From the IMG/VR virus record IMGVR_UViG_2541047715_000004: 64,000 nt of DNA; one strand, written 5' to 3'. Both the position numbers and the translations under genes were made by a program. Origin of the DNA: a virus (Duplodnaviria; Heunggongvirae; Uroviricota; Caudoviricetes). Under the pieces are notes generated by a model. The model saw nothing but the letters and a program-made list of their open reading frames with translations, had not been told where the DNA came from and made no database searches. Below, piece after piece: positions 15,678 through 64,000 of the stretch (the first letter of the stretch is position 1; every line of letters starts with the position of its first letter).

Positions 15678-15682
15678 ATTTA

Positions 15683-15769: not shown

Positions 15770-15773
15770 AATT

Positions 15774-16457: not shown

Positions 16458-17012
16458 ATGAATAAGCGCAACCTCAATATTCTTGCCTCTCTGGTAATCA
16501 TGCTCGCTCTGACGGGATGTAACGAATCGGAGATCGACAAAATTACCTTAATAGGTAGAGATAAAAGCGATCTTGCACAGAACTATAAAGCCCAGTTCCA
16601 AGAGCAAACACCCAGTATTGAGGTATTCGCTCTTCAAGATAAAAATGCACCGAATGAACAGGAACCACATACGCATGGAAATCTCATTGATGGAAAGGTT
16701 GAATCGTCTTTAACGACAAATGTCGGTAAGTATACGTTCATGCAGATCGGTGAAATGATGACAAGGGAGTACGGAAAACCGGTAGCAACGAAAGACAGAA
16801 TTTTCGACCAAGAAGCTATCTCAGGTATGGACTGTATTGAGACAAAGACCTGTGGTGCAGGCAAGTATTATGAAGTCTATCGAGGGAAGGATCGTTTAGT
16901 AATGGTGATTAACGGTGCAGGCTTTGTGAACGAAAAAGAGGGTGTAACATTGCTTTCTATCACCGATAAGATGATTAAAGTTTCACGCTTGAAAGAAGAC
17001 AAACGCAAATAG
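16458..17012 (+). CDS. lipoprotein of unknown function
   Basis: Start set at MNKRN; signal peptide with lipobox LTGC; about 184 aa. Confidence 0.55.
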   Translation: MNKRNLNILASLVIMLALTGCNESEIDKITLIGRDKSDLAQNYKAQFQEQTPSIEVFALQDKNAPNEQEPHTHGNLIDGKVESSLTTNVGKYTFMQIGEMMTREYGKPVATKDRIFDQEAISGMDCIETKTCGAGKYYEVYRGKDRLVMVINGAGFVNEKEGVTLLSITDKMIKVSRLKEDKRK

Positions 17013-17019
17013 CCATAGA

Positions 17020-17832
17020 TTGTTTAACACTGCGAGGTTAAATGTGAGTAACAGAGATGATTTTTCCCCATCGGTGAAGCGAACACTAGCCGAACGCGTA
17101 GGCTGGAAGTGCTCTTATCCTGGCTGCAACCAGACAACTGTAGGTCCAGATAGCAGTGATACAAACAGCAGGATTAATAATGGTATTGCGGCACATATTA
17201 CAGCAGCAGCGCCAGGTGGACCGAGATATGATCCTAGCTTAACCCCAGAACAGCGAAGCTCGATTGATAACGGTATATGGATGTGTCGTTCACATGGCGC
17301 ACTCATTGACTCTGACTACACTATCTATTCCGTTGAGCAATTGAAAAACTGGAAGCAGCTGGCCGAAACTCAACAATCTCTTCTGCTACAGATGACGCAC
17401 CAGGTGAGTCAGAACAATTACTCAGAAAGAGACGTCGGTGTTTTAAAAGCCATTACTGATATTTTTAATTACAACTACCTCCAAATGCTGAAGAGCGAAC
17501 AGTTCCGGGCAAAAGTTAGCACCGACATTACCGACCCTCTCTACGCATTTGATAATATTGCCCATAACCCCTTTTACAGCTTCAATGATGTTGTTTTAGA
17601 AACAATCCGTATGGAGTTGGTCGGGAAAGTGAACAACTTTTGGGCGCTGTTCAGAGAACATTCTGCTGGAGGGCTTGGGTATTATGATTATATCGATATC
17701 CCCCATATCAGACGTTTTTATCCTGATCAGGTTGAGCGCTATTACGGAATCATTAACCAAACACAAGATCTGGCGTATGAAATCAGCATAACGGCACAGA
17801 AATTACTCGAAATTAGAGCAAAACTGCCGTGA
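17020..17832 (+). CDS. HNH-motif nuclease-like protein
   Basis: CSYPGC ... AAHITAAAPGGPRYD ... NGIWMCRSHGALID arrangement typical of HNH zinc-finger nucleases; 270 aa with extra C-terminal domain. Confidence 0.55.
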   Translation: MFNTARLNVSNRDDFSPSVKRTLAERVGWKCSYPGCNQTTVGPDSSDTNSRINNGIAAHITAAAPGGPRYDPSLTPEQRSSIDNGIWMCRSHGALIDSDYTIYSVEQLKNWKQLAETQQSLLLQMTHQVSQNNYSERDVGVLKAITDIFNYNYLQMLKSEQFRAKVSTDITDPLYAFDNIAHNPFYSFNDVVLETIRMELVGKVNNFWALFREHSAGGLGYYDYIDIPHIRRFYPDQVERYYGIINQTQDLAYEISITAQKLLEIRAKLP

Positions 17833-18069
17833 GTCATGACGATATCCCTCTACATAGTAGAGGGATAATGCACAAATAATAGGTAATGACTTACCTATTA
17901 TTTGTCGGTATAGTTCTTTCATTATTCACTTAAAAGGACTCAATATGGGAAACAAACGTAAACAGGCGCGTCGCGCAGCTCATCAGGCACTGAAGTCAAA
18001 ACCATGTATCCACTACTGCGAAATTGGCACAATCATCGTTAATGAACAGCAGTTGCACGAGGTGAAGTG

Positions 18070-30199: not shown

Positions 30200-31228
30200 A
30201 TGTCTAAGACATTACTTGATTTGCTTAACAAAACTCGTGAAGACATTGCCGCCAAACGTGGCAACAACGTTGATCTGACTCGCTTAAAAGACGGCGTCAA
30301 CTATATCCGCATCTTCCCGAATAAAGACGACCCAAACGGTAAGTTCTTCCAGACTTTCGGTATGCACTACGTTAAGTATCAGAACGAGGAAGGTAAAGAA
30401 GCAACCAACGCTTATATTTGTGAGCAACATACTCACGGTCGCGCTTGTCAGCTATGCGAAATGGTGATGGAAGGTCGCGCTCGTCACAAGGGTAACAAAG
30501 CAATGGAAGAACGCATCGGTCAAATGCGTGCCACTCCTCGCTACCTGGTCAACGGCATTCTTTCTGCTCGTGAGGATTTCGCAGATGCTGAGAAATGCCA
30601 GTTAATCGAGCTGCCGTCTACTGTATTCGATGATATCTGCAAAGCAATCACCGAAGACATCGCTGATGATATCGGCAATCCACTGAGCAAAGAGGAAGGC
30701 TACGCATTCCTGATTAAACGTACTGGCTCTGGTCGCGATACCAAATATGACGTCTCGCCTAAGCGTAAAGTCTACAAAGGCGATATCGAAGATAAATTCT
30801 GGAACACCCAGCATGATCTGATCGCATACGCAAATCAGGCTGATGAAACTCGTCTTCTGTCGACAGTTCGCACTATGGGTCGTCTGATTGGCATCGCTGC
30901 ACCAACTGCCGCAGCATCTGCACCAGCAATTTCCTCAACCGCGAAAACATCGGCTGCGGCACTACCTGGATTTGGCTCTGTCACTGGTCATACAGAAGGA
31001 GCGACGGCTGTAGCAACCGCGCACACACCGGCTTCTGAACCAACCAGTCTGGTTGATGAAGAAATCCTCCGTGCCGTTGAAACTGAATTTAAACCAGAGG
31101 CAAGTTCCGCTGCCGTTGCCGTATCAGTCAAAGAGTCTGAAGCAGTCGCAGCGACATCTGTAGCAACCGCATCTGCGACGGAAGATGAAGGTCTGGATGA
31201 CCTACTGAGAGAGCTGGACTCTCTGTAA
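30200..31228 (+). CDS. single-stranded DNA-binding protein, T4 gp32-like
   Basis: IRIFPNKDD...CEQHTHGRACQLC zinc-site-like H/C cluster; Ala/Ser/Thr-rich linker and acidic C-terminal tail EDEGLDDLLRELDSL. Confidence 0.65.
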   Translation: MSKTLLDLLNKTREDIAAKRGNNVDLTRLKDGVNYIRIFPNKDDPNGKFFQTFGMHYVKYQNEEGKEATNAYICEQHTHGRACQLCEMVMEGRARHKGNKAMEERIGQMRATPRYLVNGILSAREDFADAEKCQLIELPSTVFDDICKAITEDIADDIGNPLSKEEGYAFLIKRTGSGRDTKYDVSPKRKVYKGDIEDKFWNTQHDLIAYANQADETRLLSTVRTMGRLIGIAAPTAAASAPAISSTAKTSAAALPGFGSVTGHTEGATAVATAHTPASEPTSLVDEEILRAVETEFKPEASSAAVAVSVKESEAVAATSVATASATEDEGLDDLLRELDSL

Positions 31229-32501: not shown

Positions 32502-34841
32502 ATGGCAAAAGGAAAATCCGCACTGGCACTTGCTCTGAAAAAGAAAATCGGTAGCAACGACGAAATTCAGAAAGTAACTCATTGGATTGACACAGGCTTT
32601 CCTCCGTTAAACAAAGCTATTTCCGGTCGTTACGATGGCGGTTTCCCATGTGGTCGTATCGTAGAAGTATTCGGGCCACCAAGCGCGGGGAAATGTGTTA
32701 CCGCAGACACCATGCTGCTGACGGAGCGTGGAATGGTAACAGTGAAAGAGTTGTTTGAGATTGAAGGGTACAAAGCGACATGCACTACTCGCGATGTAGA
32801 GCATAACGTTGGACTCATCAATGAAAATGGCGTGATAGAGAAGACCTCACACCTGACATGGAACAACCGTCGCAAATTCAAGCGTATTAAGCTGGCATCA
32901 GGCGGTTATATCGAGGCTACGTTCCGTCACCCAATCCGTGTGGTTGACGACTTAGGTAATGTCGTCTGGCGACATGCTGAAAAAATCAGTGTAGGCGACA
33001 CGATTCCTTCAATGGTTGGCACACATCAATTCGGCGATCAGCACCTGGATGCCAATATCGCAAAACTGATGGGCTATTTAATTGCTGACGGATACGTGGC
33101 CTCTGAAAATTCAGTGAATTTTTCTAACACAGATCCTTTCATCAAGGATGAGTACTACCGCCTCATTTCGCTGGTATCAGACAAGATGCCAGTTACGAGA
33201 AAACATAACGGCTCGGAAGACCATGTGCTGTTTAGCAAAGAGGTGCGTTCGCTGCTTTTTAAAGAATATGGTCTGGAGTATGAGAAAGCTGCTGGCAAGC
33301 AGGTTCCGTTGAGTGTGCGTCGCGCCAATAGCGAGGCTCAAATTGCATTCCTTCGCGGCTACTTTGAGCTGGAATGCCACGTCAATGATGGTCGCTGCAT
33401 TGAGGTTGTGAGCGCGAGTGGGCTGCTGCTACAGCAAATTCGCCTCATGCTCCTGAATCTGGGGATTACGTCAACTATCTCTGAAAAACACGTCGCGGGT
33501 TATGAAAATACATATTACCGGCTGTCATTCAGTGGCTCTAATTACGACCTTTTTCTGTCAACGATTGGTTTCGAATCTCCGGCACGTTTATCAGTGGCAA
33601 CCAAACGGGACATTGGTTTTGACCGCACTTACTCAGGCTATGTTCCGCACATCAGCGGCTTAGTGAAATCACTCTACGAGTCGCTCACCAAGACCACCCG
33701 TGAAGACTACGCTCTGGTAGACCACGTTATTGGCCGCGGCGATCGTGTCGGAATAGACAAACTGCGAGAAATCTATGTCTCCTTCATTGGCAGAAAGAAT
33801 CGTTTTAACGAGCATCTGTTTGCACAACTGGCAGCGGTAATTGGCTCTAACTTGTTCTACGACGAAGTCGTGGCTATTGAGGAAGGTGAAGCACCAACGT
33901 TCGACGTAGCGATGCCGGAAACACACTCTTTCTGGTCTAACGGGATTATCAGCCACAACACATTCCTTGCAACAGCAGCGATGATCTCCGCTCAAAAACA
34001 AGATGGTCTGGCGGTATTCCTCGATCATGAAAACAGTTTTGACGTTGGCCTGGCTGTAGCCAATGGCCTGAACGCAGATGAGGATGACGGTCAGTGGGTA
34101 TACAAGCAGCCAGATACCTTCGAAGACTCTGTAGAGTTGATCGGCACAATACTTAAATTGGTTCGTGATGAAGAGCTTATCCCCGAATCAGCACCTATCT
34201 GTATCGTGGCTGACTCTCTTGCGTCTATGGTTCCGAACTCCAAAGCCGAGAAGTTCGAAAAGATGGCTGAAGGCACAGCCAAAGACAAAGATCAGCTAAA
34301 CATGAACGACAATACGGCACTGGCTCGTGCGACGAGTGCGAACTTCCCTACTCTGGCTTTGTGGGCACGCAAATACAACGCCTGCATCATCTTCTTGAAT
34401 CAGGTTCGCACAAAAATCGGTGTAATGTTTGGCGACCCTACTACGTCGCCAGGTGGAGATTCACCGAAGTTCTACGCTTCTGTACGTATCCGTCTTGGTG
34501 CATCGGTGATGAAGGATGGTAAAGAGAAGATCGGCCAGGACGTAGGCGCAGAATGCATCAAAAACAAAGTTGCACCACCGTATGGCAAATGCACCTGGAA
34601 ATTCTACTTCGATCCTACTCGTGGCCTCGACGTTATCGAATCGCTCGTCGAGTACATGCTGGAAGAAGGATACCTGCCAAAGAACGCCAGCGGGCGAGTT
34701 GAAATTGGTGACAAGAAATACACCAAATCGCAGATCGTCGAGATGTATCGGGAGAAGCCACTGGCTGAAATCATTGCGGCTTTGCAGGCAATCGACGACC
34801 GAAGAGCAAAAGACAACCCCACCGAGCCAGTAGAAGAGTAA
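32502..34841 (+). CDS. RecA/UvsX-like recombinase containing an intein
   Basis: Exteins (64 + 293 aa) rejoin to GPPSAGK-TFLATAAM Walker A; RecA-like C-terminal region. Confidence 0.8.
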   Translation: MAKGKSALALALKKKIGSNDEIQKVTHWIDTGFPPLNKAISGRYDGGFPCGRIVEVFGPPSAGKCVTADTMLLTERGMVTVKELFEIEGYKATCTTRDVEHNVGLINENGVIEKTSHLTWNNRRKFKRIKLASGGYIEATFRHPIRVVDDLGNVVWRHAEKISVGDTIPSMVGTHQFGDQHLDANIAKLMGYLIADGYVASENSVNFSNTDPFIKDEYYRLISLVSDKMPVTRKHNGSEDHVLFSKEVRSLLFKEYGLEYEKAAGKQVPLSVRRANSEAQIAFLRGYFELECHVNDGRCIEVVSASGLLLQQIRLMLLNLGITSTISEKHVAGYENTYYRLSFSGSNYDLFLSTIGFESPARLSVATKRDIGFDRTYSGYVPHISGLVKSLYESLTKTTREDYALVDHVIGRGDRVGIDKLREIYVSFIGRKNRFNEHLFAQLAAVIGSNLFYDEVVAIEEGEAPTFDVAMPETHSFWSNGIISHNTFLATAAMISAQKQDGLAVFLDHENSFDVGLAVANGLNADEDDGQWVYKQPDTFEDSVELIGTILKLVRDEELIPESAPICIVADSLASMVPNSKAEKFEKMAEGTAKDKDQLNMNDNTALARATSANFPTLALWARKYNACIIFLNQVRTKIGVMFGDPTTSPGGDSPKFYASVRIRLGASVMKDGKEKIGQDVGAECIKNKVAPPYGKCTWKFYFDPTRGLDVIESLVEYMLEEGYLPKNASGRVEIGDKKYTKSQIVEMYREKPLAEIIAALQAIDDRRAKDNPTEPVEE
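32694..33959 (+). mobile_element. intein with LAGLIDADG homing-endonuclease domain
   Basis: Starts with Cys (CVTADTML), TFRH block B, LMGYLIADGYV and FLRGYFELECHV motifs, ends ...GIISHN followed by Thr. Confidence 0.75.
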
Positions 34842-38157: not shown

Positions 38158-39252
38158 TCAAAGCAGTTTGAGACTATTGGAAAGGATCTCAATCATCTTG
38201 ATATTTTCAGGCGTCAAATTCTGCGAAAGTTCGGTTATCTTATTGATAATGTTCTGTTTGGCATCAATTTCCCCGGCTTTCTCATCTGGTTTTTTGGGTT
38301 CGATGTCTTCAGGTTTTGGCGGTGCGACTTTGAGTTTTGGATTGCGGCTGTGAATCTGGATATAGATCGACCGCCCACGCTTAATCTCGCTGTATTCGAG
38401 ATAGCCCAAATCTTGGAGAGCTTTTAAGCCGTTACGTATAGTCTGATTCTGCGAGCTGACATTCCTGCTACTCAAATTGAGTCGCGCACGCAATCGAGCA
38501 AGCGATACCGGCGCAGGCTTGGTTGGAAGACTTTCGATGAAGGTGTACAGAGCCTGTGCTGTTTCTTTGCGTGGTAGCTTATTGATAACCTTTAACTGCA
38601 AAAGAACCTTATGGTCAAAGCGATATAGTTCGGCCAGCTTCGGTTCTGCATAGAACACCACCGTATCTTTCTGCTCGTTGTAGTCCACGCTATTGATGAG
38701 GTGCACCATCAGAAGCGAGATCTTGTTAGAGCCGTCGACGTTCTTTTCTTCATACGTTCTCTGGAAAGACAGAGTTGTACGCATGATCTTCAAAAGACTG
38801 TTTGTAAGCCGGTCGCGGAGTGTTTTGCGGATCTGTGACGATGGATAGCCACAAAACTTCGCAAATTTCGTGATGCTTAACTCGACACGACCATTAGGTT
38901 CGCCGTATTCTGCCAGCGAACGCACAACGCCCACCCACGTTTTGAAATCATGATCCATGTCCAGGCGAGGACCGGTTATCTTGATATCGGAATAGCCTTC
39001 AGAACGGGCTACTTCGAGCTGGACAAGCTCCTTTGAAGCATCGATCTCATTTGGCTTGTTACGTTTACTGTATTTTGTTCCCTTAAGCGTGGGGACGAAC
39101 AACCCCAGTCGCATCAACGCAATTGGTTGGACTGTATTGTTGCTATTAGGGACAAGTTCCCCTGTGTACAATTCAAGGGAACCTTCTTCAAAGTTGTCGA
39201 TGTTATCTTCTACTTCTTTGTTATTTTTACCTTTTTTATTTTTTGTGGACAT
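38158..39252 (-). CDS. repA: iteron-binding plasmid replication initiator (RepA-like)
   Basis: Gene flanked on both sides by direct iterons; start set at MSTKN (ORF extends to 39372 into iterons); no sequence motif recognised, call is from architecture. Confidence 0.65.
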   Translation of the reverse strand: MSTKNKKGKNNKEVEDNIDNFEEGSLELYTGELVPNSNNTVQPIALMRLGLFVPTLKGTKYSKRNKPNEIDASKELVQLEVARSEGYSDIKITGPRLDMDHDFKTWVGVVRSLAEYGEPNGRVELSITKFAKFCGYPSSQIRKTLRDRLTNSLLKIMRTTLSFQRTYEEKNVDGSNKISLLMVHLINSVDYNEQKDTVVFYAEPKLAELYRFDHKVLLQLKVINKLPRKETAQALYTFIESLPTKPAPVSLARLRARLNLSSRNVSSQNQTIRNGLKALQDLGYLEYSEIKRGRSIYIQIHSRNPKLKVAPPKPEDIEPKKPDEKAGEIDAKQNIINKITELSQNLTPENIKMIEILSNSLKLL

Positions 39253-39270
39253 GTGGACACCTTTGTCATT

Positions 39271-39375
39271 CAACCGCTGACAGCATACTTGATTTGCCGC
39301 TGACAGAATACTAAAAACAGTTGGCAGCATACGGTGAACCGCTGACAGACTATCAATTACCGCTGACAGCATACA
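39271..39375. repeat. iteron array (about 5 repeats) upstream of rep, origin-proximal
   Basis: CCGCTGACAGCATA, CCGCTGACAGAATA, GGCAGCATA, CCGCTGACAGACTA, CCGCTGACAGCATA. Confidence 0.8.
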
Positions 39376-39409: not shown

Positions 39410-39495
39410 ACAGCGATCGGGGATCTTATTTGATCTATATAAGGATCTATCTATGGATCTCTTTATTAGGATCTATCCTGTGGATATGTGAATAA
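39410..39495. promoter_or_regulatory. putative origin elements: GATC cluster and DnaA-box-like site
   Basis: Six GATC sites within about 60 bp in GGATCTAT-type repeats, then CTGTGGATATG (DnaA-box-like). Confidence 0.5.
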
Positions 39496-52468: not shown

Positions 52469-52888
52469 ATGTTTAGTGAAATGTTGCTTGAAGATGAACT
52501 GGATCGGAAAACAACAGAGGCTTTGATTCGTGTAGCGGACGAACATTCCCGGTCGCTTATGAGCGATCGAGAGGCTCGTCTGGCTATTCGTGCCATATTC
52601 GAAACTGCGCAGGGGCTTGTTGGCGCACAAGTAGGTGAAGCCATTAACATCGCCATGTCTCAGTTCAGTGAAGACAGTAAAAAGCCTCTGTTTCCTATGC
52701 ATTTGATGCTGGCTGGTGGCACGGTGCTTTATATCTCTGTTTGTCTGGATAGCAACCAAATCAATATTCTCAACACTGCGTCAGGTAAGTGGAAAGATCC
52801 GATTGTCTGTGAAACCAGTGAAGAAACTTTGAAAAAAGCGGCTCAATTTGTACGTAGCGCACTACTTAAGGGCGCTAAGAAGTTGTAA
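52469..52888 (+). CDS. hypothetical protein
   Basis: 139 aa ORF. Confidence 0.4.
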   Translation: MFSEMLLEDELDRKTTEALIRVADEHSRSLMSDREARLAIRAIFETAQGLVGAQVGEAINIAMSQFSEDSKKPLFPMHLMLAGGTVLYISVCLDSNQINILNTASGKWKDPIVCETSEETLKKAAQFVRSALLKGAKKL

Positions 52889-52897
52889 GGAGTTCTG

Positions 52898-53455
52898 ATG
52901 ACAACGATTGTTGCAGGCATCGATATCGAGTCTACGGGACTGGATTTCCTTGCTGGTCATAAAATTATTGAAATCGCAATTACCCGCTATGAACTGGAGA
53001 CACAGAGACATATTGATAGTCTGGAGATGCGTTTTAACCCTCGCAGAAACATAGATCCGAAAGCTCAAGCCGTTCATGGCATTTCATTAGAACAGCTCGC
53101 AGCTGAACCTTTGTTGTCAAATCATGCCAGCGAAATTGGCGCTTATATGGGGGCATGTAGTGCGTGGATTGCTCATAACGGCGAAGCGTTTGATATACCA
53201 TTTATTCGACACGAGTTTTCAGGGTATGGAGTAAGACTGCCAGACGTTCCCGTTATAGATACTATGTTATCGGGATTGTGGGCCACAGAAGACGGTAAAC
53301 GTCCTCGCCTTGAAGAGTTGGCCTTCTCTCTTGGCTTTATATACGATCATGCCAAAGCACATAGTGCCTTATATGACACAAACTTAATGATGCAATGCTT
53401 CTTTAAGGCACGTAATAAGTACGGATTTTTTAAATTACCCTCTGAAATTGTGTAA
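52898..53455 (+). CDS. DnaQ-like 3-prime-5-prime exonuclease (DEDDh)
   Basis: Exo motifs IDIESTGLD, HNGEAFDIPF, HSALYD; 185 aa. Confidence 0.8.
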   Translation: MTTIVAGIDIESTGLDFLAGHKIIEIAITRYELETQRHIDSLEMRFNPRRNIDPKAQAVHGISLEQLAAEPLLSNHASEIGAYMGACSAWIAHNGEAFDIPFIRHEFSGYGVRLPDVPVIDTMLSGLWATEDGKRPRLEELAFSLGFIYDHAKAHSALYDTNLMMQCFFKARNKYGFFKLPSEIV

Positions 53456-53460
53456 AACAA

Positions 53461-53497
53461 AAGCCTACTTTAAAGAGAGTTTAAAGTAGGCTTTCTT
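53461..53497 (+). terminator. intrinsic terminator hairpin
   Basis: AAGCCTACTTTAAA...TTTAAAGTAGGCTT followed by T-rich tract. Confidence 0.65.
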
Positions 53498-53615
53498 TTA
53501 AAGAACAGCCGCCTTTCAATCATTTCCTGCCTGTATTTAATACTTTTCCGCCTGATAGGTTTAGTCAAAATGTAGCTATCGAAACGCAAATGTAACCAAG
53601 CAGAAGGAGACTTAC

Positions 53616-54425
53616 ATGAGTTCGGTTGAAAATGTAATGACAAATGATGATCTGGACGAGCTGACAGCCATGTTGCAATCACTTGATGAACCAGTAAAAA
53701 AAGCCGCACAGGTTGAAAATACTGATGATATTGACGATCTGCTGCTCGGCCTCGATGCTGGCGTAGCCATGAGTTCTGATGATGTTGCCGAAGAACTGTT
53801 CAATGAAGAAAAAGCAGGTGATTTCAGCTCTGCTTTAAATGAGTTGGAGTTAGCGCATGAGCCTATAAACGTAATTAACGCTGAAAGTGTTGAATCTGCC
53901 GAAAACGAGCCAGAACAATTGGGATTGATTGAGGTTGAAGAGTGTGTTGATGTTAATGATGAATTAAAAGTTCAACAGTCAAATGATAGCAACACAAATA
54001 AAAAAGCGCGTACTGCAAGAGGTCCTCGTTTTACTTTAAGTGATAAAGATGATTCGTTTTTCAATAAAGCAGGCTTAGAAACAGATATTTTCTTAGACGC
54101 TTACGAAAACGCGCCTGTCAAAGCAAAGGATAAGATATTAAACCTTCTTAATTGGTTTAGCGGAGGTCCAGATATTAGTGTTTACACGGTAATTTCCATG
54201 AGACACCTTCTCACAGAAAAGAAGGCTACAAGTAATAGTATTAAGATTGCTTTAATGAGCAATCCAGAAAAACCGTATCCGCTTAACACTGCGTCAACTC
54301 AGGCTGGGCAAATGATGGCTGTATTTCCAGCGACAGGAATTGCCGTTAGAGACGGTGGAAATCTAACATTGAACGAAGAATCACCGATCGTTAAGAAGTT
54401 TGTAGCGGAGTACACTATTGGATGA
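53616..54425 (+). CDS. hypothetical protein with strongly acidic N-terminal half
   Basis: About 30 percent Asp/Glu in first 115 residues; followed by terminator hairpin 54505..54545. Confidence 0.45.
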   Translation: MSSVENVMTNDDLDELTAMLQSLDEPVKKAAQVENTDDIDDLLLGLDAGVAMSSDDVAEELFNEEKAGDFSSALNELELAHEPINVINAESVESAENEPEQLGLIEVEECVDVNDELKVQQSNDSNTNKKARTARGPRFTLSDKDDSFFNKAGLETDIFLDAYENAPVKAKDKILNLLNWFSGGPDISVYTVISMRHLLTEKKATSNSIKIALMSNPEKPYPLNTASTQAGQMMAVFPATGIAVRDGGNLTLNEESPIVKKFVAEYTIG

Positions 54426-54608
54426 CGTCCCCCTACTGAAAATAAAGCCCATAGAGAGCTTTATAGTGCTGGGTAAGCCAATCACATATCCAGCACCACA
54501 AAAACGCGCCAGAGAGCTTCTCGTTTGCATTTCTGGCGCGTTTTATTTGATTGCCAGACATAAAATCAAATGCAAAAATAGGTAATCACTTACCTATCGA
54601 GAAAGACG

Positions 54609-55202
54609 ATGATTGCAGCCGAAAAAATCAAACAGCGAAAGCGCGACAACTCTCTTCGTGACCTCTGGAGAACACCTGACTGGCTGTTTTCTGCCATTCA
54701 ACGTTATCTTGGAGTGACATTTGATGTTGACGTTGCCTGCAACAAGGACAATGCGAAGCTGCCTAATTTCATAGGCGTTGAGCGTGATGCTTTGAAATCT
54801 GAATGGGGACAGCCAGGTACAATTGCCTTCCTCAATCCACCCTACTCCAAAATCTCCCCCTGGATTGATGCGGCTATACGTGAGCAGGCTCGCGGAGTTA
54901 CAACAGTGATGCTAATTCCTCAATCCCTCGATACAAAGTGGTATGAGCGTGCAACAGAGTGTGCGAATGAGACGATTATTCTGTCTGGTGGCCGCGTAGC
55001 GTTTGTCGAGCCTGACGTCAATTTGGGTCAGGTAGAAGTAAACATCAACCCCGGTGGCAGTATGCTCGTTGTTTTTCGAGGATTCTGTCAGGACGCTGGG
55101 CACTCTATAAGCAAGATCCCTTTGGACGTCATGAAAAGTCTGGGAGGGTATGATCCTGCGAATGTGATCAGGAAAAAAAGACAATCAAAGAAGGCTGCTT
55201 AG
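54609..55202 (+). CDS. DNA N6-adenine methyltransferase, orphan phage Dam type
   Basis: Catalytic NPPY motif (FLNPPYSKISPW); 197 aa; no adjacent nuclease gene. Confidence 0.7.
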   Translation: MIAAEKIKQRKRDNSLRDLWRTPDWLFSAIQRYLGVTFDVDVACNKDNAKLPNFIGVERDALKSEWGQPGTIAFLNPPYSKISPWIDAAIREQARGVTTVMLIPQSLDTKWYERATECANETIILSGGRVAFVEPDVNLGQVEVNINPGGSMLVVFRGFCQDAGHSISKIPLDVMKSLGGYDPANVIRKKRQSKKAA

Positions 55203-55220
55203 TTTGTTCTGGCGTCTGTA

Positions 55221-55281
55221 ATTAGCCTGCTTCTGTATATATAAATAACTACATATTAATTATTAATATACGGAAGCAGGC
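55221..55281. repeat. long GC-stem / AT-loop hairpin element, copy 2
   Basis: GCCTGCTTCTGTATATATAAATA...TATACGGAAGCAGGC; near-identical arms to copy at 7745..7803. Confidence 0.6.
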
Positions 55282-55364
55282 TGTTTTATATCAGAGACTC
55301 CCAGACCTGAACACCACTACAGAATCCACTAGAACCCCTTCCCAGACGCTTTAAAATCGATTTT

Positions 55365-55619
55365 ATGAACCACTTTAAGGAAACCAACATGTCATACCCG
55401 ACTAATGTCGTTGCGCTCGTAGAGAGCGATTTTCTGGCCCAGGCTCGTGAAATGATGAAAGATCGTGAGCAGGCTTTCAACTTGTACGAATGGGCAATTA
55501 AGTGCTTGCATCTTGGGGAGCATCGCGAACTTGTTGAACAGCTTTTAGGTGAGTTGATCAACGAGGTGTTTGCCTTGAATGTTCAACTACATGGTCGAAA
55601 AAATAATCAATCGAAATGA
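55365..55619 (+). CDS. hypothetical protein
   Basis: 84 aa ORF. Confidence 0.35.
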   Translation: MNHFKETNMSYPTNVVALVESDFLAQAREMMKDREQAFNLYEWAIKCLHLGEHRELVEQLLGELINEVFALNVQLHGRKNNQSK

Positions 55620-56205
55620 TAGATAAGTACAAACTATTCATAAAGTGAATTGTAAGTGCTAAGATCTGATAGTTTCCAGTCGTAGACTGGAGGCTCGACC
55701 TGATGGGTGGGGGTAAGCGTCACTGGCGTCAGGTTTAAAAAAGCTCACTACCAGCGTAGAACCGGCACCGTTTAGGGGTTGGGGAAGGGGGAACCAAAGT
55801 GAGCAGAGACAAGGGTCACTTTATGATTGTCGAGTCTGGGGTGTTTCGAGAGGTTGAATCCAGTACTCCCCTTCATAAAGTGTGGGAAGATCTCGGTTCT
55901 GGGGTGCTGTCATCCATAACTTCCCAAGCCTAAGCTGGCAGTAGACTTAGGTCATAACTTTTCAGGTTATGAAACGACCAGGTTGGTGAGGAAATTTTGT
56001 ACTCACCTCCCTGGGAGAGTATTACCTGAAAAGACAACCTCTCACTTCGTTCGAGGTGAACTTCACTCACTTCGTTCGTTCAGTTCAGGTTTATAAAAAC
56101 CTGTTCTGGGAAGTAATTTGTTTATTTTAATAATTATTAACACGCACGCGTGTGCGCACGCGCGAGGAAAAAAAAATCGGCGCGGCGCTTGATTCAGGAG
56201 TTTAT

Positions 56206-58453: not shown

Positions 58454-59023
58454 ATGTGCAAGAAATGCAAAGCGATAGCTGATGAACAAAACGCCTTATT
58501 CGAAGAAATGGATGCTAATGAACTGGTCAAAATGTTAGCCATTCTTCGAGGAATAGAAGACGTTTCCATATTTGAGAGAGTGGTTACAGCACTTAATTTT
58601 GAGTCCACCTTTGAAGAGCCAACTCAGGTTGTAGCTTTAGCACATCATTTCGGTGTTCATTATCTTGCTGAAAAAGAGCGCGCTGATAAGTTGCAGGCGA
58701 CTTTGGATATGGTGAGCGAGACTCAACGAACTGATGACACTAACAAGAGTGAGGCGATTATTGCCAGCAAAGATCGTGAAATTGCTGGGCTTAAATCCTC
58801 TCTAACGATGTTGATGTCTGCGTTCAATCTTATGTCTTCTCAGGCGGGTTATAAAATGCCATCACTAAACAGCGATGATCCGATGGCCGTTCGTCAGCTT
58901 TTGGGAGCAATGGCCGACCAACTCGACGACACAAAGAGTCGCCTTGAAGACATGATGCGTGAGTTAAGCCATCGACATAACCTCGCAACACAACCACACA
59001 AAGTCTTTCAAAGCTCTAATTGA
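58454..59023 (+). CDS. hypothetical coiled-coil protein
   Basis: 189 aa ORF; preceded by AAACAACTTGTTT upstream motif. Confidence 0.45.
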   Translation: MCKKCKAIADEQNALFEEMDANELVKMLAILRGIEDVSIFERVVTALNFESTFEEPTQVVALAHHFGVHYLAEKERADKLQATLDMVSETQRTDDTNKSEAIIASKDREIAGLKSSLTMLMSAFNLMSSQAGYKMPSLNSDDPMAVRQLLGAMADQLDDTKSRLEDMMRELSHRHNLATQPHKVFQSSN

Positions 59024-59077
59024 TCTGATATGGCCGCATGATCGGCCATATTGTGTTGATAAAAACAAGGGTGAAAA

Positions 59078-59359
59078 ATGGCATACGGTACAGGGATTTA
59101 CAACAATAAAGGAATTAACGTTACTGGCTTCCTTACACCTATTTTTTTTCTTGATCGATTTACGGCGTCATCAGGCTCTAAGACGTACTCTAATCCGCCA
59201 CCGGGTAAATCACTACATGCCGTGTGGTCATTAATGCCTCTTAACAACGACAACTACATCAATTTACCTGTTCCAAATGTTACTATTAATGGAAATACGG
59301 TTAGTTGGTCAAATTTATATACGGGGCTTGGTTCTTACATATACACATACTGGGGATAA
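59078..59359 (+). CDS. hypothetical protein, paralog of 1343..1597
   Basis: 93 aa; shared FLDxFTxSxGSKTY...TVSWS pattern. Confidence 0.45.
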   Translation: MAYGTGIYNNKGINVTGFLTPIFFLDRFTASSGSKTYSNPPPGKSLHAVWSLMPLNNDNYINLPVPNVTINGNTVSWSNLYTGLGSYIYTYWG

Positions 59360-59361
59360 TT

Positions 59362-59976
59362 ATGTTCGGGATGTCAATTACTCAATCAGATGGAAGTTTG
59401 TGGATGAGTCCTGAATTTACTCCGCAAAATCTGATTAATAAAGGGACAATGTCTACATCTAAAGGTTCTGTTTTTCAAACATCAATCCCATCAAACAAAT
59501 CATGCTTTTTCTTCATAAAAAGCAGCAATAAGGCGAACATGATGTTTATTCATGAACATAGTAACGGATACAATGCTCTCAGATTGCATCAGGTAAATGG
59601 TAGCCCCGGAACAATAACAGTTTATGCTTTTTCTGATATGGTGTTACCACATTCTGGCTATGGCATTGCCATGTATAACAGCGCAGGCGCAATGGTGTAT
59701 CACGGTGAGATGATGCCCCTTGATGCAAAACTTATCACTATTACTGACCCACAATTTACAATAGATATGGGGTATCCGTGCGCAGTAATGCCTGCTATGG
59801 TTGGGGTTTATAACTATAGACGAACCGATTACGACAGACCTGTCTATGTAACTATGACCGGTGCAACTGGAAACCAAGTATATAACGGTCAATGGTATTC
59901 CGGTAATGTCACATGGGATATTAAGAAGATTTATACAAACAAAATCCTGGTTATAAATACCTCAAAGTATGATTAG
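59362..59976 (+). CDS. hypothetical protein, paralog of 1691..2206
   Basis: Start at ATG overlapping upstream stop (TAATTATG); shared SDGxxWMSP...CFF N-terminal pattern with region 1597..1715. Confidence 0.45.
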   Translation: MFGMSITQSDGSLWMSPEFTPQNLINKGTMSTSKGSVFQTSIPSNKSCFFFIKSSNKANMMFIHEHSNGYNALRLHQVNGSPGTITVYAFSDMVLPHSGYGIAMYNSAGAMVYHGEMMPLDAKLITITDPQFTIDMGYPCAVMPAMVGVYNYRRTDYDRPVYVTMTGATGNQVYNGQWYSGNVTWDIKKIYTNKILVINTSKYD

Positions 59977-60079
59977 CAAATACCTTTATTTAAAGGATTG
60001 CCTGTTAATTTCTATTTAGCACCTTTTCATTTTTGAAATAATTGCACTATTAAACAAATCTTTTCTTAATGGTGCAATT

Positions 60080-60556
60080 ATGAATACAGCTCTTTCCATC
60101 ATCGACGATACCAACTCAAACACTGCTATCGATTATCGTCAGGAAATGAACGTCATCCACGAAATCGTAGCCGAGTGCGAGAAAGAGATCGCCTTCATGT
60201 ATCAGGTTCACGACTTCGTTTATGGCGACGAACGCCACAACATGATTAATCGCCTGCTGCAACTGAACCATCGACCAGATGAAGAACGCTCACGTTTGAA
60301 TCGAGCTTGGCTGGATAAAGTCGATCTGGAATGGGTGAAACAGAATATTTGGGCCGAGTACTGGAGGAAGGTCACGGATATGACTAACGTTTTGCTGATC
60401 ATGCCAGCTTCCCGTCGCGACGAGTGGCGTGAGCAGTTTATAGAGGGCAAACAGGAAGTCATCAAAACTGACAGAACCGGCTACCAGATGAAGGTTAAAG
60501 AGTTCGTTGGTGTACCTGAGTTCAAAGTGGATACAAACATCCCTACGATGGTTTGA
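60080..60556 (+). CDS. hypothetical protein convergent with hsdR
   Basis: 158 aa ORF. Confidence 0.4.
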   Translation: MNTALSIIDDTNSNTAIDYRQEMNVIHEIVAECEKEIAFMYQVHDFVYGDERHNMINRLLQLNHRPDEERSRLNRAWLDKVDLEWVKQNIWAEYWRKVTDMTNVLLIMPASRRDEWREQFIEGKQEVIKTDRTGYQMKVKEFVGVPEFKVDTNIPTMV

Positions 60557-60614
60557 TCTGACAGCTATCTGCAATTTGCACAGATGTCTGCCAGATCTGG
60601 TTCAGATTAATACA

Positions 60615-63600
60615 CTATATCTGCCCACCTACTCCTTTGAACTTTTCAATAAACGTGACGATTTTCTGGAAAACGGTCTGTTTTTTCGTTTTATATTGCG
60701 GGTTTAACGGACTAAGTTTTGGTAATGTCTCGTTTAATTCTGTGCCATTTTCGGTGGCGTATTCGCGTTTTAAAGACGTGCGAATATAGCGTTTCGCCGC
60801 CTCTTCATTGAGATTTTCTTCTTTTATCAATGCTTCTGCTTCACGTTGCTGTTCGCGTTGAGCAAACGTAAAGAATGCCTCAATGATACTGGCTTTGTCT
60901 GGTAAATCATCCAGGTTCGTTTGCTGAATAAAATCGACCACCAGGCCCTCTTTCGCCCGGTTCCCCAGGCTTGAACGAATTAAGCGTTTGACCTCTTCGA
61001 TCATTTCGCCCTTGCCTTTATTTTGTCTGTTGTGTTCGAAAATCAGTCCAAGGATATAATCCAGGTTTATTTCCTGAGACTTCAGCAAATCGACCTCAAA
61101 AACTACGTCATCCCAGTCAGTGGTTGATTTCTCTTTTTTCTCAGCTTCTTTCTCACGGCGCTGCCAGTCGCGAATATCGTTATAGGCAGAACGATAATCC
61201 TGAATCTTGCGTTCAGCAGGGAGACGAATTGTTTGCAATTCAGCGAACTTTTCATCATCCACATAATGTTCTGCTTTGAATTTTTCTACCGCAACAGGAT
61301 CGCTAAGATCGATTTGTTGCAGGGCTTTCAGCGTGGCAAATTCATCATAGTTTTGCAGGATGTTCTCGGCACGCAGGTATTCACCAAACAGTTTTACGAA
61401 GTCTTTCTTCTCTTTTTCACTTTCAATACTGGCAGGGTCAGGGAACCGTTGTTCCAGTTCTGAAACTACTGCCATAAAGCCGCGTTTAGCTTCACCAGTG
61501 GCAGCATCTGTAAAGCCTTCCATATACTCAGCATAACTCTTTTCTAACACCACATTTTTAGTATTTTTATCACCAAACAGCGTTATGGCATCAATGGTTG
61601 AGCGTTCCAGATCCCGAAAAGTGACGATGTTACCGAAGGTTTTAGTAGCGTCATAAATGCGGTTGGTACGGGAGAATGCCTGCATCAGGCCGTGAAAACG
61701 CAAGTTTTTATCGACGAATAGCGTGTTCAATGTTGGAGCGTCGAAGCCGGTTAAAAACATCCCAACGACAATTAACAGATCGATATCCTGATTTTTAACC
61801 CGTTGGGCTAAATCACGATAGTAGTTCTGAAAACCGTTACTGTCGGTGCTGAAGTTAGTTTTAAAATAGCTGTTATACTCACGAATTGCAGCGTCAAGAA
61901 ACTCTTTAGCACTGCTGTCCATTGCGCTGGTATCAAAAGTTTCATCGGAAATTTCACCAATGGCATTTTGTTCTTCATTGGCGGCAAAGGAGAAGATTGT
62001 TGCAACACGCAGCGGTTTATAGGTAGCCGATTTATTAGCTGCTTCCTCTTGTAACCGTTTAAACGTCGCGTAATAGGCTTTCGCGGCATCCACGCTACTC
62101 ACTGCCAGCATGGCATTAAAGCCTTTGGAACCTGGGAAAGTACGGTGGGTCTTCTGGCGGAAGTTATTCAGAATATATTGCGTAATTTCCTGTATACGCA
62201 TGGGATGAAGAAATGCCTGCTGATTTTCAGCCGCACTCAGTTTTTTCTCGTCGGTTTCTGTCTCTAAAGATTTAAACTGTGGCCGCACATCGTTGTAGTC
62301 CACCTTGAATTTGAGCACTTTTTCATCACGAATCGCATCGGTAATTACATACGAATGCAATTCACGACCAAATACGCTGGCGGTCGTTTCTGAGCCTAAG
62401 GCGTTTTCCGGGAAAATAGGTGTGCCGGTAAAACCAAACTGATAATAGCGTTTGAATTTCTTCTTCAGGTTTTTCTGCGCTTCTCCAAACTGGCTGCGGT
62501 GACATTCATCAAATATAAACACCACTTGCTGATTGTATACAGGCAGGTCGCTTTCTGCTTTCATCAGGTTATTAAGTTTCTGAATAGTGGTGACGATAAT
62601 TTTGTTATCGTCCTTATCCAGATTGCGTTTAAGACCTGCGGTATTTTCCGAGCCGTTGACGCTGTCTGGCGAAAAACGCTTATATTCATTCATGGTCTGG
62701 TAATCGAGGTCTTTCCTGTCGACCACGAAGAAGACTTTATCAATAAAGTCCAGCTCTGTTGCCAGACGCGCGGCTTTAAAGCTGGTGAGGGTTTTACCTG
62801 AACCGGTAGTGTGCCAGATATACCCACCGCTTTCCGGTTTTGACCAGTTCTTCGCTGTAAAGGAACTCTTAATTTTCCACAGAATGCGCTCAGTGGCGGC
62901 AATCTGGTACGGTCGCATCACCAGTAGCGTTTGGCTAACATCGAATACGCTGTAGTTCACTAAGACATTAAGCAGGGTATGTTTCTGGAAAAAGGTGGCG
63001 GTAAAGTCTTTGAGGTCTTTAATCAGCGTGTTGTCTGATTTCGCCCAATTCATGGTGAAGTCAAAACTGTTTTTATCGCGCTTTGTCGTGTTGGCAAAGT
63101 AACGGGTATCGGTGCCGTTGGAAATGACAAACAGTTGCAGATACTTAAACAGAGAATTTTCGCTGTTAAAACTCTCTTTGCTGTAACGATGTATCTGGTT
63201 AAAGGCCTCACGAATCGCCACGCCGCGCTTTTTCAGTTCGATTTGTACCAGCGGTAAGCCATTAACCAGGATCGTGACGTCATAACGGTTAGCATGAGAA
63301 CCCGTCTGTTCAAACTGCTGGATAATCTGCACCTTGTTGCGCATGAGATTCTTTTTATCTATCAAATAGATGTTCTCAAGACGCTCGTCATCAAAAATAA
63401 AGTCGCAAATATAGTCGATATGGATTTTACGGGTCTTATCCAGGATGCCATCGCTCGGGTTATCCAGATACTGCTCCGTGAAACGCCGCCATTCGCTGTC
63501 ATTAAACACCACACCATTGAGGTTCTGAAGCTGTTCCCGAACGTTGGCCAGCATCGCCGACTGAGATTTTACGGAAATAAATTCATAGCCCTGATTCCGC

Positions 63601-63731
63601 AGATCCTGAATCAGTTCACGTTCCAGGTCCGATTCGCTCTGGTAGCTGTCGCCTGTTTGCTCGGCTTTGATGTACTTATCAAGAACGATAAAGTTATTGG
63701 ATTCAGCAATGGTGTGTGTCTGATGAGTCAT
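60615..63731 (-). CDS. hsdR: type I restriction enzyme R subunit (HsdR)
   Basis: 1038 aa; N-terminal PD-(D/E)xK-like nuclease segment ([19 protein letters not shown]), helicase motif I TTGSGKT, motif II FDECHRS. Confidence 0.85.
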
Positions 63732-63852
63732 AGCGCATCCTTTGTGCCGTCTGGCAAGGGCCGGAAGGGCTTTAAGGGCGACTTCCGGCGTGTAAAAAAT
63801 AGTCTCTATATAGACCGGATGTTAAGGTGATCCGGTCGGTAGCAATGGTCAA

Positions 63853-64000
63853 TTAGTTACTGATAGTTTCAGGTTTGGGAAAACTGAACAGTAAATCACG
63901 ATAGTACTCGTATTGTTTCTGGCGCAACTCGATTTCACGCGGAAGACCTTCGGTGATGGAATTGGTCAAAGCATCAAATTTATCCAGTAATTTCACTATT
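63853..64000 (-). CDS. hsdS: type I restriction specificity subunit (HsdS), 3-prime end only
   Basis: Minus-strand translation of window end gives ...[44 protein letters not shown]-stop, typical HsdS C-terminal helix; gene continues beyond window. Confidence 0.65.

Follow-up and report, generated by a model that had tools for sequence, protein, structure and literature searches.

Characterized members of the Dam family of N6-adenine DNA methyltransferases target GATC, and in the oriR of P1 a cluster of GATC sites lies beside iterons and a DnaA box near repA. In T7 gp2.5, T4 gp32, and E. coli SSB, a DNA-binding domain is combined with an acidic tail, while Ocr and ArdA have a charge density similar to that of the acidic protein described below. 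DNA mimics lack homology to one another and have evolved repeatedly, DNA mimicry by itself does not confer anti-restriction, the genes for Ocr and ArdA are early or leading-region accessory genes, and protective methylation is a recognized route of restriction evasion (PMC12707154). The preliminary description of the locus examined here drew on both mimicry and methylation, and proposed that a strongly acidic protein and the orphan Dam-type methyltransferase encoded after it form a candidate anti-restriction module.

The phage-plasmid and its variable downstream arm

The window, by which we mean the whole stretch of 64,000 nucleotides that was analyzed, belongs to an SSU5/pHCM2-like phage-plasmid of E. 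coli with 98.5% identity to phage Cyrano, and many E. coli 'plasmids' of ~100-114 kb are 100% identical to this element. Its replication genes encode DnaE, a gp32-like SSB (30200-31228), FEN, an intein-bearing RecA-fold protein, and an SbcC-like protein. The acidic gene and dam occur as a pair in about 175 plasmids, and the hsdR region is found in just 36. The cargo of the downstream arm varies: this element has a type I restriction-modification (R-M) cassette, Cyrano and SSU5 have a DUF4942 methyltransferase, and the downstream region of an Enterobacter relative gave a weak Tad2-like match. The window had been described as carrying a complete-looking type I restriction locus, which holds for hsdR (60615..63731, minus strand; TIGR00348 at 8.5e-230, PADLOC REase_I) but not for the other two genes, as hsdS enters the window with just its final ~148 nt (49 codons), and the remainder of this gene, like the whole of hsdM, is located past position 64000. 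Relatives that are 100% identical over positions 59000-64000 have a complete hsdM-hsdS-hsdR. For Cyrano in LF82, the acidic gene and dam both fall outside the set of genes expressed in lysogeny (PMC9928086). Phage-plasmids of the SSU5/pHCM2-like type are frequent in clinical E. coli, Salmonella, and Klebsiella and bear resistance genes, and sorting their core replication genes from defense and anti-defense cargo makes phage-plasmid biology easier to read.

The acidic protein, its predicted fold, and its family

The acidic gene (53616..54425, plus strand) starts with ATG, has the Shine-Dalgarno sequence AAGGAG 7 nt 5' of the start, and encodes a protein of 269 aa. Residues 1-115 contain 33 Asp/Glu and 3 Lys/Arg (28.7% acidic, net -30, pI 4.05), in agreement with the about 30 percent Asp/Glu reported earlier for the first 115 residues of an ORF with these same boundaries, and residues 126-269 have a slightly basic composition (pI 9.1). 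Of the 53 non-overlapping ORFs of the window, for which the median net excess is 7, none has a 115-aa stretch more acidic than this N-terminal one, and a CobT-like protein (20573-22681) comes near it in charge (net -29). The N-terminal parts of 143 family representatives have a median of 24% Asp/Glu and a net charge of -20, and since the acidity is retained across the family, the composition is not due to chance. Among PHROGs, the protein matches phrog_5235 at 9.9e-150, and only families with no assigned function were matched. Searches of Pfam (E<=0.01), NCBIfam, and PADLOC gave no match for the protein, 24 distant family members scanned against Pfam returned only noise, and three alignments, used as profiles against PDB sequences, yielded nothing (A2) or chance-level matches (A1 and A3, E >= 0.12). 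In the literature, we found no characterization of the acidic protein, phrog_5235, or this Dam.

The structure predicted by AF2 divides the protein into three parts. Residues 10-80 (53643..53855, plus strand) are modeled as four acidic amphipathic helices (10-32, 36-50, 54-64, and 70-80), with a pLDDT of 70-81 from a 90-sequence alignment. They contain two conserved motifs, DDLDELTAMLQSLD (residues 11-24) and DDIDDLLLGLD (residues 37-47), for which column conservation is 0.75 and 0.67, respectively, compared to 0.32-0.5 in their surroundings, and the N-terminal motif occurs family-wide in 40 of 135 representatives against 2.8 expected. Because these helices reach this confidence with the deeper alignment, the N-terminal half may contain a folded acidic helical domain, and hence support some form of mimicry. 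Residues 84-132 (53865..54011, plus strand) comprise a variable, low-complexity linker that is predicted to be disordered, with a pLDDT <50 throughout in a 23-sequence alignment, while in the 90-sequence alignment the pLDDT is <50 for residues 87-98 and 100-112 and 51-64 beyond. The mean column identity of the linker is 0.32, and the N-terminal region ranges from 132 to 218 residues in length among close relatives.

Residues 140-269 (54033..54422, plus strand; pI about 9) are predicted to form three helices and a winged helix-turn-helix domain, the topology of which is present in full order (H189-201, b203-205, H206-214, H223-240, b243-246, and b249-252) at a pLDDT of 96-98. K173, N176, T225, and Q232 are invariant across 90 sequences, the predicted recognition helix (GT-x-x-Q-x-GQ-M) is near-invariant, and the K/K/N helix is also conserved. 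The nearest folds are all transcription factors (ArsR, MarR, MecI, and Fur), and the predicted domain was scored as significantly similar in structure to solved winged-helix proteins. For the acidic protein, Foldseek found no significant match in the PDB (best E 0.17) and only uncharacterized phage proteins in BFVD (best E 8e-4). We infer that the protein probably binds DNA via its basic C-terminal winged helix, a reading whose indirect support comes from the pI of 9.1 and the invariant K173, N176, T225, and Q232. The presence of a nearly unchanged recognition helix in phages of very different hosts is unusual for a sequence-specific regulator, and so the ligand of this helix could also be something other than DNA. 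Two further ideas about the protein and its gene were discarded. A beta-clamp-binding motif in 'MLQSLDEP' was rejected, as its Gln is not conserved in the family, and a search for iterons within the acidic gene, comparable to the ori inside lambda gene O, found only weak repeats that mirror the repeated DD(L/I)D peptide.

The acidic family comprises 652 representative clusters (50% identity; E<=1e-3), and in nearly all of the 150 representatives listed, the conserved domain is C-terminal and the N-terminal part is acidic. Homologs also occur in Stenotrophomonas and Rhizobium phages. In the window, the acidic gene follows a gene for a dnaQ-like 3'-5' exonuclease of the Pol III epsilon type (52898..53455, plus strand; PF00929 RNase_T at 1.1e-20, phrog_192), and dnaQ is likewise found 5' of the acidic-gene homolog in SSU5, in nickie, and in 12 of 14 distant viral contigs, which span ~32-117 kb, most of them ~100-117 kb. 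In nickie and these 12 contigs, the two genes are 0.7-2.2 kb apart within a ThyX/DHFR/AAA-kinase/DnaQ block. The other two contigs (L012 and L014) gave no dnaQ match, and the sequence 5' of the homolog in L012 extends for just ~1.3 kb. All relatives examined have the acidic gene in a replication/nucleotide-metabolism block, far from the structural genes. This gene order marks it as a core gene whose synteny with dnaQ extends to distant phages, and it belongs to a large, unstudied family of acidic-tailed winged-helix proteins that is characteristic of ~100-120 kb siphoviruses and of SSU5 phage-plasmids. No PF05869 Dam gene is present in the flanks examined (+/-7 kb) around the acidic homolog at the 14 distant loci, and at 3 of these an orphan methyltransferase of another family is encoded 2.5-3 kb downstream. 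Orphan methyltransferases from other families are also repeatedly encoded 2.5-6 kb downstream within the lineage, which loosely links this genome region with DNA modification. An SSU5-like contig from Raoultella retains dnaQ followed by the acidic gene and lacks Dam, and by this comparison Dam appears to be dispensable while the acidic gene persists.

The Dam methyltransferase and the signals around it

The gene that follows encodes an orphan phage Dam-family N6-adenine DNA methyltransferase of 197 aa (54609..55202, plus strand; PF05869, TIGR01712, phrog_111, PADLOC oMTase). It matches PF05869 at 2.4e-38 over profile positions 5-160 of 169 (131.9 bits against a cut-off of 28.1) and TIGR01712 with 114 bits against a curated cut-off of 97.05, and it has the catalytic motif LNPPYS at residues 75-80, with NPPY at 76-79. 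Neither of its neighbors, the acidic gene and an ORF of 76-84 aa with no assigned function, encodes a nuclease domain. It is clear from these results that the preliminary description was correct in reporting a stand-alone N6-adenine methyltransferase with NPPY and no partner nuclease. The top PADLOC matches are 'orphan methyltransferase' models, homologs are found in 1608 phage records, the protein is about 39% identical to the dam products of Stx phages and SfI, and its RefSeq name is already 'phage N-6-adenine-methyltransferase'. It is an ordinary phage orphan methyltransferase that has already been annotated.

Terminator-like hairpins, each followed by a U-run, are found on the plus strand after dnaQ (53460..53499; 15-bp stem, 5-nt loop, RNA fold -18.8 kcal/mol, z -5.0), between the acidic gene and dam (54501..54548; 13-bp perfect arms, -26.2 kcal/mol, z -6.4), and after dam (55224..55289; 17-bp arms, -27.8 kcal/mol, z -6.95). 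A consensus scan also placed a candidate sigma-70-like promoter for dam, TTGCCA-17-AAAAAT with an extended-10 TG, at 54551..54579 (plus strand), which is weak on its own, with 5 such sites in the region against 6.1 expected. Adjoining it, 13 nt 5' of the dam start codon, is a perfect palindromic operator-like site, TAGGTAATCACTTACCTA (54579..54596, no strand assigned). Up to 3 mismatches, 17 such sites occur in the window against 1.5 expected (half-sites, 12 against 0.7), and 14 of the 17 are intergenic, mostly shortly 5' of plus-strand genes. The copy before dam is kept in Cyrano and SSU5, and the palindrome TAGGTAA-N4-TTACCTA is confined to the enterobacterial SSU5 group. It is unlikely to be the binding site of the winged helix, because it is missing in distant relatives where the recognition helix is almost identical. 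One candidate for the protein that recognizes this palindrome is a putative repressor, the homolog of CYRAN_45. Given the strong terminator hairpin and the promoter- and operator-like sites that lie between them, the acidic gene and dam read as two separately transcribed genes and not one operon, and dam would be transcribed from its own promoter, overlapped by the palindrome.

Dam probably methylates the phage-plasmid DNA during lytic growth, and GATC, by analogy only, is its likely target. This methylation could shield progeny DNA from restriction, so that the orphan methyltransferase may protect the element, and it could also feed a GATC-rich, P1-type oriR. A tentative possibility is that Dam acts less in restriction evasion than in DNA transactions of the element itself, whether in P1-type oriR firing, in packaging, or in mismatch repair or SeqA control during rapid lytic replication. 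Consistent with this, the sole significant GATC cluster in the 64 kb, with six sites in 56 bp that include four GGATCT repeats, adjoins five origin iterons and the DnaA-box-like TGTGGATAT just 5' of repA, a layout that resembles that of the P1 oriR. Moreover, the window shows no avoidance of GATC (261 observed against 310 expected), and as the E. coli host already has Dam, additional GATC methylation would give little protection in lysogeny. However, the target on which this possibility depends is predicted by analogy only, and the loss of the Dam gene from the Raoultella relative, in which the rest of the module is kept, indicates that Dam is not essential to the replicon. Three methyltransferase families occupy this arm of the genome in relatives, which is a better fit to interchangeable protective methylation than to a specific regulatory circuit.

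Possible roles of the acidic protein and comparison with known systems

Our best joint explanation, to which we would give an even chance, is that these are two independent lytic-arm genes, one for an acidic winged-helix protein that acts as an organizer or adaptor of the replication module and one for an orphan Dam, and that they do not form an anti-restriction pair. The winged-helix domain would contact DNA through its near-invariant recognition helix and the conserved K/K/N helix, and the acidic N-terminal half, with its leucine-patterned amphipathic helices and disordered linker, would be an interaction or auto-regulatory tail, functioning either in self-association and partner recruitment or in electrostatic masking of the DNA-binding face. 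In this manner, the protein may act as a DNA organizer or adaptor at the origin or in the replisome. The replication-module reading is suggested by the core status of the acidic gene and by its synteny with the Pol III-type replication genes of the phage (DnaE, DnaQ, gp32-like SSB, and FEN), and the support drawn from dnaQ synteny is guilt by association. The same data also fit a role as a transcription factor, and we regard it as possible, if rather unlikely, that the acidic protein is a regulator of the lytic program instead of a replication factor, involved in middle or late activation or in autoregulation, with its acidic helices touching RNA polymerase. All of the closest folds belong to transcription factors, the acidic amphipathic helices match a design that is classic for activation domains, and the acidic gene occupies its own terminator-bounded unit. 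However, no repeated candidate operator tracks the family, as TAGGTAA-N4-TTACCTA is restricted to the enterobacterial SSU5 group, the recognition helix is near-invariant family-wide whereas sequence-specific factors usually vary there, and the conserved neighbors are replication and nucleotide-metabolism genes. Scaffolding and some internal proteins are also acidic and helical, a character that the acidic protein shares, but a role in scaffolding, packaging, or the virion is extremely improbable given the winged-helix domain, the distance of the gene from the structural genes in every relative examined, and the lack of any structural annotation among its PHROG matches.

The remaining alternative, in which the acidic protein would counter restriction or other defenses as a DNA mimic and would form a restriction-evasion module with the orphan Dam, we consider improbable. 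Its charge (28.7% Asp/Glu and net -30 over 115 aa) is within the range known for Ocr and ArdA, its N-terminal helices are predicted with moderate confidence, and the cargo downstream includes variable defense and anti-defense genes (type I R-M, the DUF4942 methyltransferase, and the weak Tad2-like match). In its favor, too, are the repeated, independent origins of DNA mimics (PMC12707154). Against it, the protein has no match to the Ocr (PF08684), ArdA (PF07275), or KlcA/ArdB families in Pfam, PADLOC, or NCBIfam, there is no structural match to mimics either, and mimicry by itself is insufficient for anti-restriction (PMC12707154). A basic winged helix makes up half of the protein, and the acidic part shows poor conservation, differs in length between relatives, and is disordered in places. 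The gene belongs to the core and keeps its synteny with dnaQ in phages that lack a PF05869 Dam in the flanks examined, although 3 of the 14 loci have an orphan methyltransferase of another family, it is parted from dam by a terminator hairpin, and it occurs with or without type I R-M. Thus, while the orphan methyltransferase of the proposed module is real and methylation is a recognized evasion route, the acidic protein resembles DNA mimics in charge density alone, and neither the mimic nor the module is supported in view of the winged helix, the core synteny, and the terminator between the genes. It is similarly, and slightly more, improbable that the protein is a DNA-tethered nucleic-acid mimic, with the winged helix anchoring it to phage DNA and a tail that would serve as a local decoy for DNA-tracking host machines such as type I R-M, BREX, H-NS, or RecBCD; if true, this would be a new anti-defense architecture and would partly vindicate the preliminary description.

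Setting the replication-module reading beside these alternatives has several implications for annotation. A tempting but unsupported anti-restriction label is removed from the acidic protein, and a 'hypothetical protein' gains a structural annotation as an acidic tail joined to a winged helix. The protein also takes its place in a large, uniformly unannotated family tied to the Pol III-type phage replication module, which makes the protein a sensible subject for initial functional work.

Compared to known systems, Dam shares with the PF05869/TIGR01712 enzymes of Stx-converting phages and SfI the NPPY motif, a length of ~200 aa, the lack of a partner nuclease, and a phage-borne gene, and it differs from them in its sequence, with the identity of about 39% noted above, and in the SSU5-group-specific operator-like palindrome 5' of its gene. 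The acidic protein is 3-16% identical to winged-helix regulators of the ArsR/SmtB, Fur/PerR, BlaI/MecI, MarR, and PadR types, no Pfam model of these matches it, and it adds to their fold three N-terminal helices and an acidic extension of ~135 residues. With Ocr (T7 gp0.3) and ArdA it shares a very high Asp/Glu density (about 29%) and a predicted helical character, but it has no sequence or fold match to either, its acidic part is fused by a disordered linker to a basic winged helix, and, in contrast to their accessory genes, its gene is a core gene inside the replication module. T7 gp2.5, T4 gp32, and SSB offer a design analogy only, as there is no homology, the DNA-binding domain here is a winged helix and not an OB fold, the tail is N-terminal and not C-terminal, and the element already encodes a gp32-like SSB. 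Within that analogy, the acidic protein likewise appears to join a DNA-binding domain to a polyanionic, partly disordered tail that ends in a short conserved hydrophobic/acidic motif, and its gene, like theirs, sits among replication genes.

Identity and gene order of the element

Across window positions 52800-55700, nucleotide comparison gave 98.5% identity to Escherichia phage Cyrano, an SSU5-like phage-plasmid whose host strain is E. coli LF82, and 97.6-98.2% identity to three further phage records. Several non-mobilizable E. coli "plasmids" of ~100-114 kb are 100% identical to the same region, which is matched by 177 PLSDB records, and the element is a temperate siphovirus kept as a plasmid. 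In annotated relatives the genes run in the order RuvC, RNR alpha and beta, MazG-like, ThyX, PNK-phosphatase-like, DHFR, AAA kinase-like, a hypothetical protein, the DnaQ-type exonuclease, the acidic ORF (hypothetical), the adenine methyltransferase, small hypothetical proteins, and RNase H. This order, together with the DnaE (Pol III alpha), gp32-like SSB, FEN exonuclease, and SbcC-like protein also encoded in the window, places the acidic gene and dam in a replication and nucleotide-metabolism arm. A Rep3-type RepA is encoded as well, and a RecA-fold protein (32502-34841), probably a replicative helicase or recombinase, is split by an intein that bears a LAGLIDADG homing-endonuclease domain.

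Elsewhere, the window holds three tandem tRNA genes (15603-15846, plus strand) and a match over the full length of the Rfam cspA thermoregulator 5' UTR (27978-28396, minus strand, 185.7 bits), the latter implying a cold-shock protein gene and RNA thermosensor on a phage-plasmid. A CobT-like VWA protein of 702 aa, followed by an AAA_5 (MoxR/dynein-type) ATPase (20573-24012), carries a second very acidic stretch (38 D/E in 115 residues); no role for the pair in a phage is obvious.

Architecture, family, and synteny of the acidic protein

Both open reading frames were confirmed, the acidic gene at 53616-54425 (269 aa) and dam at 54609-55202 (197 aa), each on the plus strand, and the former begins with ATG, 7 nt downstream of the Shine-Dalgarno sequence AAGGAG. 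The acidic N terminus reported in the preliminary description is real: residues 1-115 contain 33 D/E and 3 K/R (28.7% acidic, net charge -30, pI 4.05), a level that no other stretch of this length reaches in the window's 53 non-overlapping ORFs, though the CobT-like protein is nearly equal. Residues 126-269 are slightly basic (pI 9.1). The protein is assigned to phrog_5235, a family of unknown function, and scans with Pfam, NCBIfam, and PADLOC models returned no match. SSU5-like elements of Enterobacterales are the source of all 55 close homologues, whose alignment resolves three parts, namely the short conserved N-terminal motifs DDLDELTAMLQSLD (residues 11-24) and DDIDDLLLGLD (residues 37-47), a weakly conserved acidic linker of variable length, and a strongly conserved C-terminal region of ~130 residues. 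AlphaFold2 was run with a 23-sequence and then a 90-sequence alignment. Residues 140-269 are predicted as a domain of three helices followed by H-b-H-H-b-b (pLDDT 96-98), and residues 10-80 as four amphipathic helices (pLDDT 70-81 with 90 sequences), in which L13, L16, L20, and L23 have heptad-like spacing. The linker appeared disordered in the 23-sequence run (pLDDT <50 at residues 84-132); with 90 sequences, pLDDT was <50 at 87-98 and 100-112 and 51-64 beyond.

The C-terminal domain, used in an exhaustive HMM search, recovered 652 representative clusters at E<=1e-3, 177 of them at E<=1e-10. Among the 150 matches listed of these 652, nearly all are proteins of 200-340 residues with the domain at the C terminus, apart from short fragments and a single protein that carries it internally, and nearly all have acidic N-terminal parts (median 24% D/E, net -20). 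The motif (D/E)-x-(L/I)-(D/E)-A-(L/M/I)-L-x-x-L-(D/E) occurs within the first ~40 residues of 40 of 135 representatives, with 2.8 expected from shuffles; its leucines also have heptad-like spacing, and in the window it falls at 53643-53756. K173, N176, T225, and Q232 are invariant over 90 diverse members. All members are unnamed and lack a Pfam domain. Among isolated phages, homologues occur in the Pseudomonas nickie-like, Stenotrophomonas ANB28-like, Rhizobium RHEph10-like, and SSU5-group phages, whose genomes measure about 84-122 kb (100-122 kb in most), and in every case the homologue is annotated as hypothetical.

The position of the gene was compared in phage nickie (L003) and 14 distant viral contigs of 32-117 kb (most ~100-117 kb). 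Nickie and 12 of the 14 contigs have the homologue 0.7-2.2 kb 3' of a dnaQ-like gene on the same strand (the window's own dnaQ is at 52898-53455), usually preceded by ThyX, DHFR, and an AAA kinase-like gene; the exceptions are contigs L012, whose upstream sequence extends for only ~1.3 kb, and L014, where no match to any window protein was found. ORFs between dnaQ and the homologue in nickie (gp064, L003 5810-6412) and contig L011 (5608-6249) begin with a glycine-loop-like GxGxF/SxV reminiscent of protein kinases; a Pfam scan of the nickie ORF gave no match. For a protein hitherto labelled hypothetical everywhere, three things are new here, its assignment as a winged helix, the architecture shared across the family, and the synteny with dnaQ; they amount to an annotation of structure rather than of function.

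Dam, the plasmid replicon, and restriction

Scores of the 197-aa ORF lie above the curated cut-offs for both PF05869 and TIGR01712, and, as first described, it is a stand-alone methyltransferase, with NPPY present, no nuclease neighbour, and "orphan methyltransferase" models as its best PADLOC matches. Orphan enzymes of its family are very common in phages (1608 phage records have homologues; identity to the dam of Stx phages and SfI is about 39%), and RefSeq already annotates it as a phage N-6-adenine-methyltransferase. No PF05869 homologue was found within the +/-7 kb fetched around the homologue in nickie and the 14 distant contigs, where the ORFs directly 3' are HU-like, DUF6876, or family-less and unrelated to PF05869. 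Two elements of the SSU5 supergroup differ in this respect: the one from Enterobacter has retained dam after the acidic gene, and the one from Raoultella has dnaQ and then the acidic gene but no dam. Three of the 14 distant loci carry an orphan methyltransferase of another family 2.5-3 kb 3' of the homologue (PF01555 at L013 10045-10995; DUF4942 with NPPF at L015 10248-11807 and L017 9845-11506), and Cyrano and SSU5 have a DUF4942-type enzyme ~5.7 kb downstream, so this arm tends to hold DNA-modification genes, which are interchangeable cargo beside a fixed core.

Dam probably methylates the element's DNA in lytic growth, and restriction protection is a recognised role of orphan methyltransferases (PMC12707154). 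Alternatively, the enzyme, if GATC-specific, could serve the replicon too. A P1-type plasmid replicon (37620-39480) contains repA (38158-39372, minus strand), around which lie 15 iterons (ACCGCTGACAGCATA), eleven of them downstream and four upstream. Just upstream of repA, adjoining the origin iterons and the DnaA-box-like TGTGGATAT, six GATC sites lie in 56 bp (39415-39473), four of them within GGATCT repeats, and no other significant GATC cluster occurs in the 64 kb. The P1 oriR has a similar layout, and it is this arrangement that opens a replicon role to a GATC-specific enzyme.

The type I restriction locus, initially described as complete-looking, is so only for hsdR (60615-63731, minus strand), since the window holds ~148 nt of hsdS and hsdM lies outside it; relatives 100% identical over 59000-64000 have hsdM-hsdS-hsdR. 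The cassette sits in a variable hotspot (window 60080-64000; 16278-17963 in locus L001; from 11398 in locus L004), at the position of the DUF4942-type orphan methyltransferase in Cyrano and SSU5, and only about 36 of the matching plasmids carry the hsdR region. In an Enterobacter SSU5-like contig (L022 7735-8046), a weak Pfam match to a Tad2-like (anti-Thoeris) protein 1.1 kb 3' of Dam is a hint that anti-defence genes can be housed in the interval following dam. The window strongly avoids palindromes of 6 bp (685 observed, 900 expected, ratio 0.76; non-palindromic six-mers, 1.00), which suggests passive evasion of type II restriction. Ten sites (AAGCTT, AGCGCT, CTGCAG, GAGCTC, GCATGC, CTCGAG, CCATGG, GGCGCC, CACGTG, and CGTACG) occur 0-1 times against 5.7-15.8 expected, and CTAG occurs 30 times against 97; no avoidance of GATC was seen in the window.

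Expression and proposed role

Stable hairpins with U-runs follow dnaQ (-18.8 kcal/mol, z -5.0), the acidic gene (-26.2 kcal/mol, z -6.4), and dam (-27.8 kcal/mol, z -6.95), and a promoter-like site (54551-54579) and a perfect operator-like palindrome, TAGGTAATCACTTACCTA (54579-54596), lie upstream of dam, so the acidic gene and dam look like separate transcription units. The palindrome is one of 17 TAGGTAA-N4-TTACCTA sites (18 bp, <=3 mismatches, 1.5 expected) in the window, including those at 2448, 7886, 17880, 30097, 34882, 36835, 40342, 45026, 54579, and 56797, and the half-site ACTTACYTA occurs 12 times (0.7 expected). Fourteen of the 17 are intergenic, most just 5' of plus-strand genes, among them dam, RNR alpha, gp32-like, and metallophosphoesterase genes. 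The motif is kept in Cyrano, SSU5, and the Raoultella element and is nearly absent from nickie-like and other distant relatives (one 2-mismatch match, L011); it resembles the scattered operator sites of a regulator of the SSU5 group, possibly the prophage repressor. In LF82 lysogens, CYRAN_78 (the acidic gene) and CYRAN_79 (dam) are not among the genes expressed above prophage background (PMC9928086), which fits lytic-cycle genes. CYRAN_81 is reported to be expressed 12-fold above that background (PMC9928086), and its 44-aa homologue just 3' of dam (55799-55933) may thus be a moron.

The preliminary description joined the acidic gene and dam in a candidate anti-restriction module, which is not supported: a terminator-like hairpin separates the genes, and Dam is missing from the Raoultella element and from the +/-7 kb fetched around the distant loci. 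For the acidic protein itself, an anti-defence role through DNA mimicry is very improbable. DNA mimics are notoriously non-homologous (PMC12707154), and the N-terminal helices are predicted with moderate confidence, but charge density is the only feature in common with known mimics, and comparison of family and fold with these gave no match. Moreover, the acidic part varies in sequence and length and is joined to a basic, putatively DNA-binding domain, the gene belongs to the syntenic core and not to the early accessory genes, and its distribution does not follow restriction-modification carriage (the pair in about 175 plasmids, the hsdR region in 36).

We consider it quite probable that this is an acidic-tailed DNA-binding protein and not a restriction decoy. 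It would contact DNA via the basic C-terminal winged helix, as its fold, charge, and invariant polar and basic residues suggest, and the polyanionic N-terminal half, with its heptad-like leucine spacing and flexible linker, would most plausibly mediate self-association, recruit a partner, or mask the DNA-binding face. Its constant place next to dnaQ, within a replication module of the Pol III type, suggests that the protein organises replication or acts there as an adaptor, a reading we hold only tentatively; a transcription regulator of the lytic programme, nearly as likely, is a somewhat fainter possibility. Acidic tails of such design are carried by T7 gp2.5, T4 gp32, and SSB, which the acidic protein resembles in design without homology.
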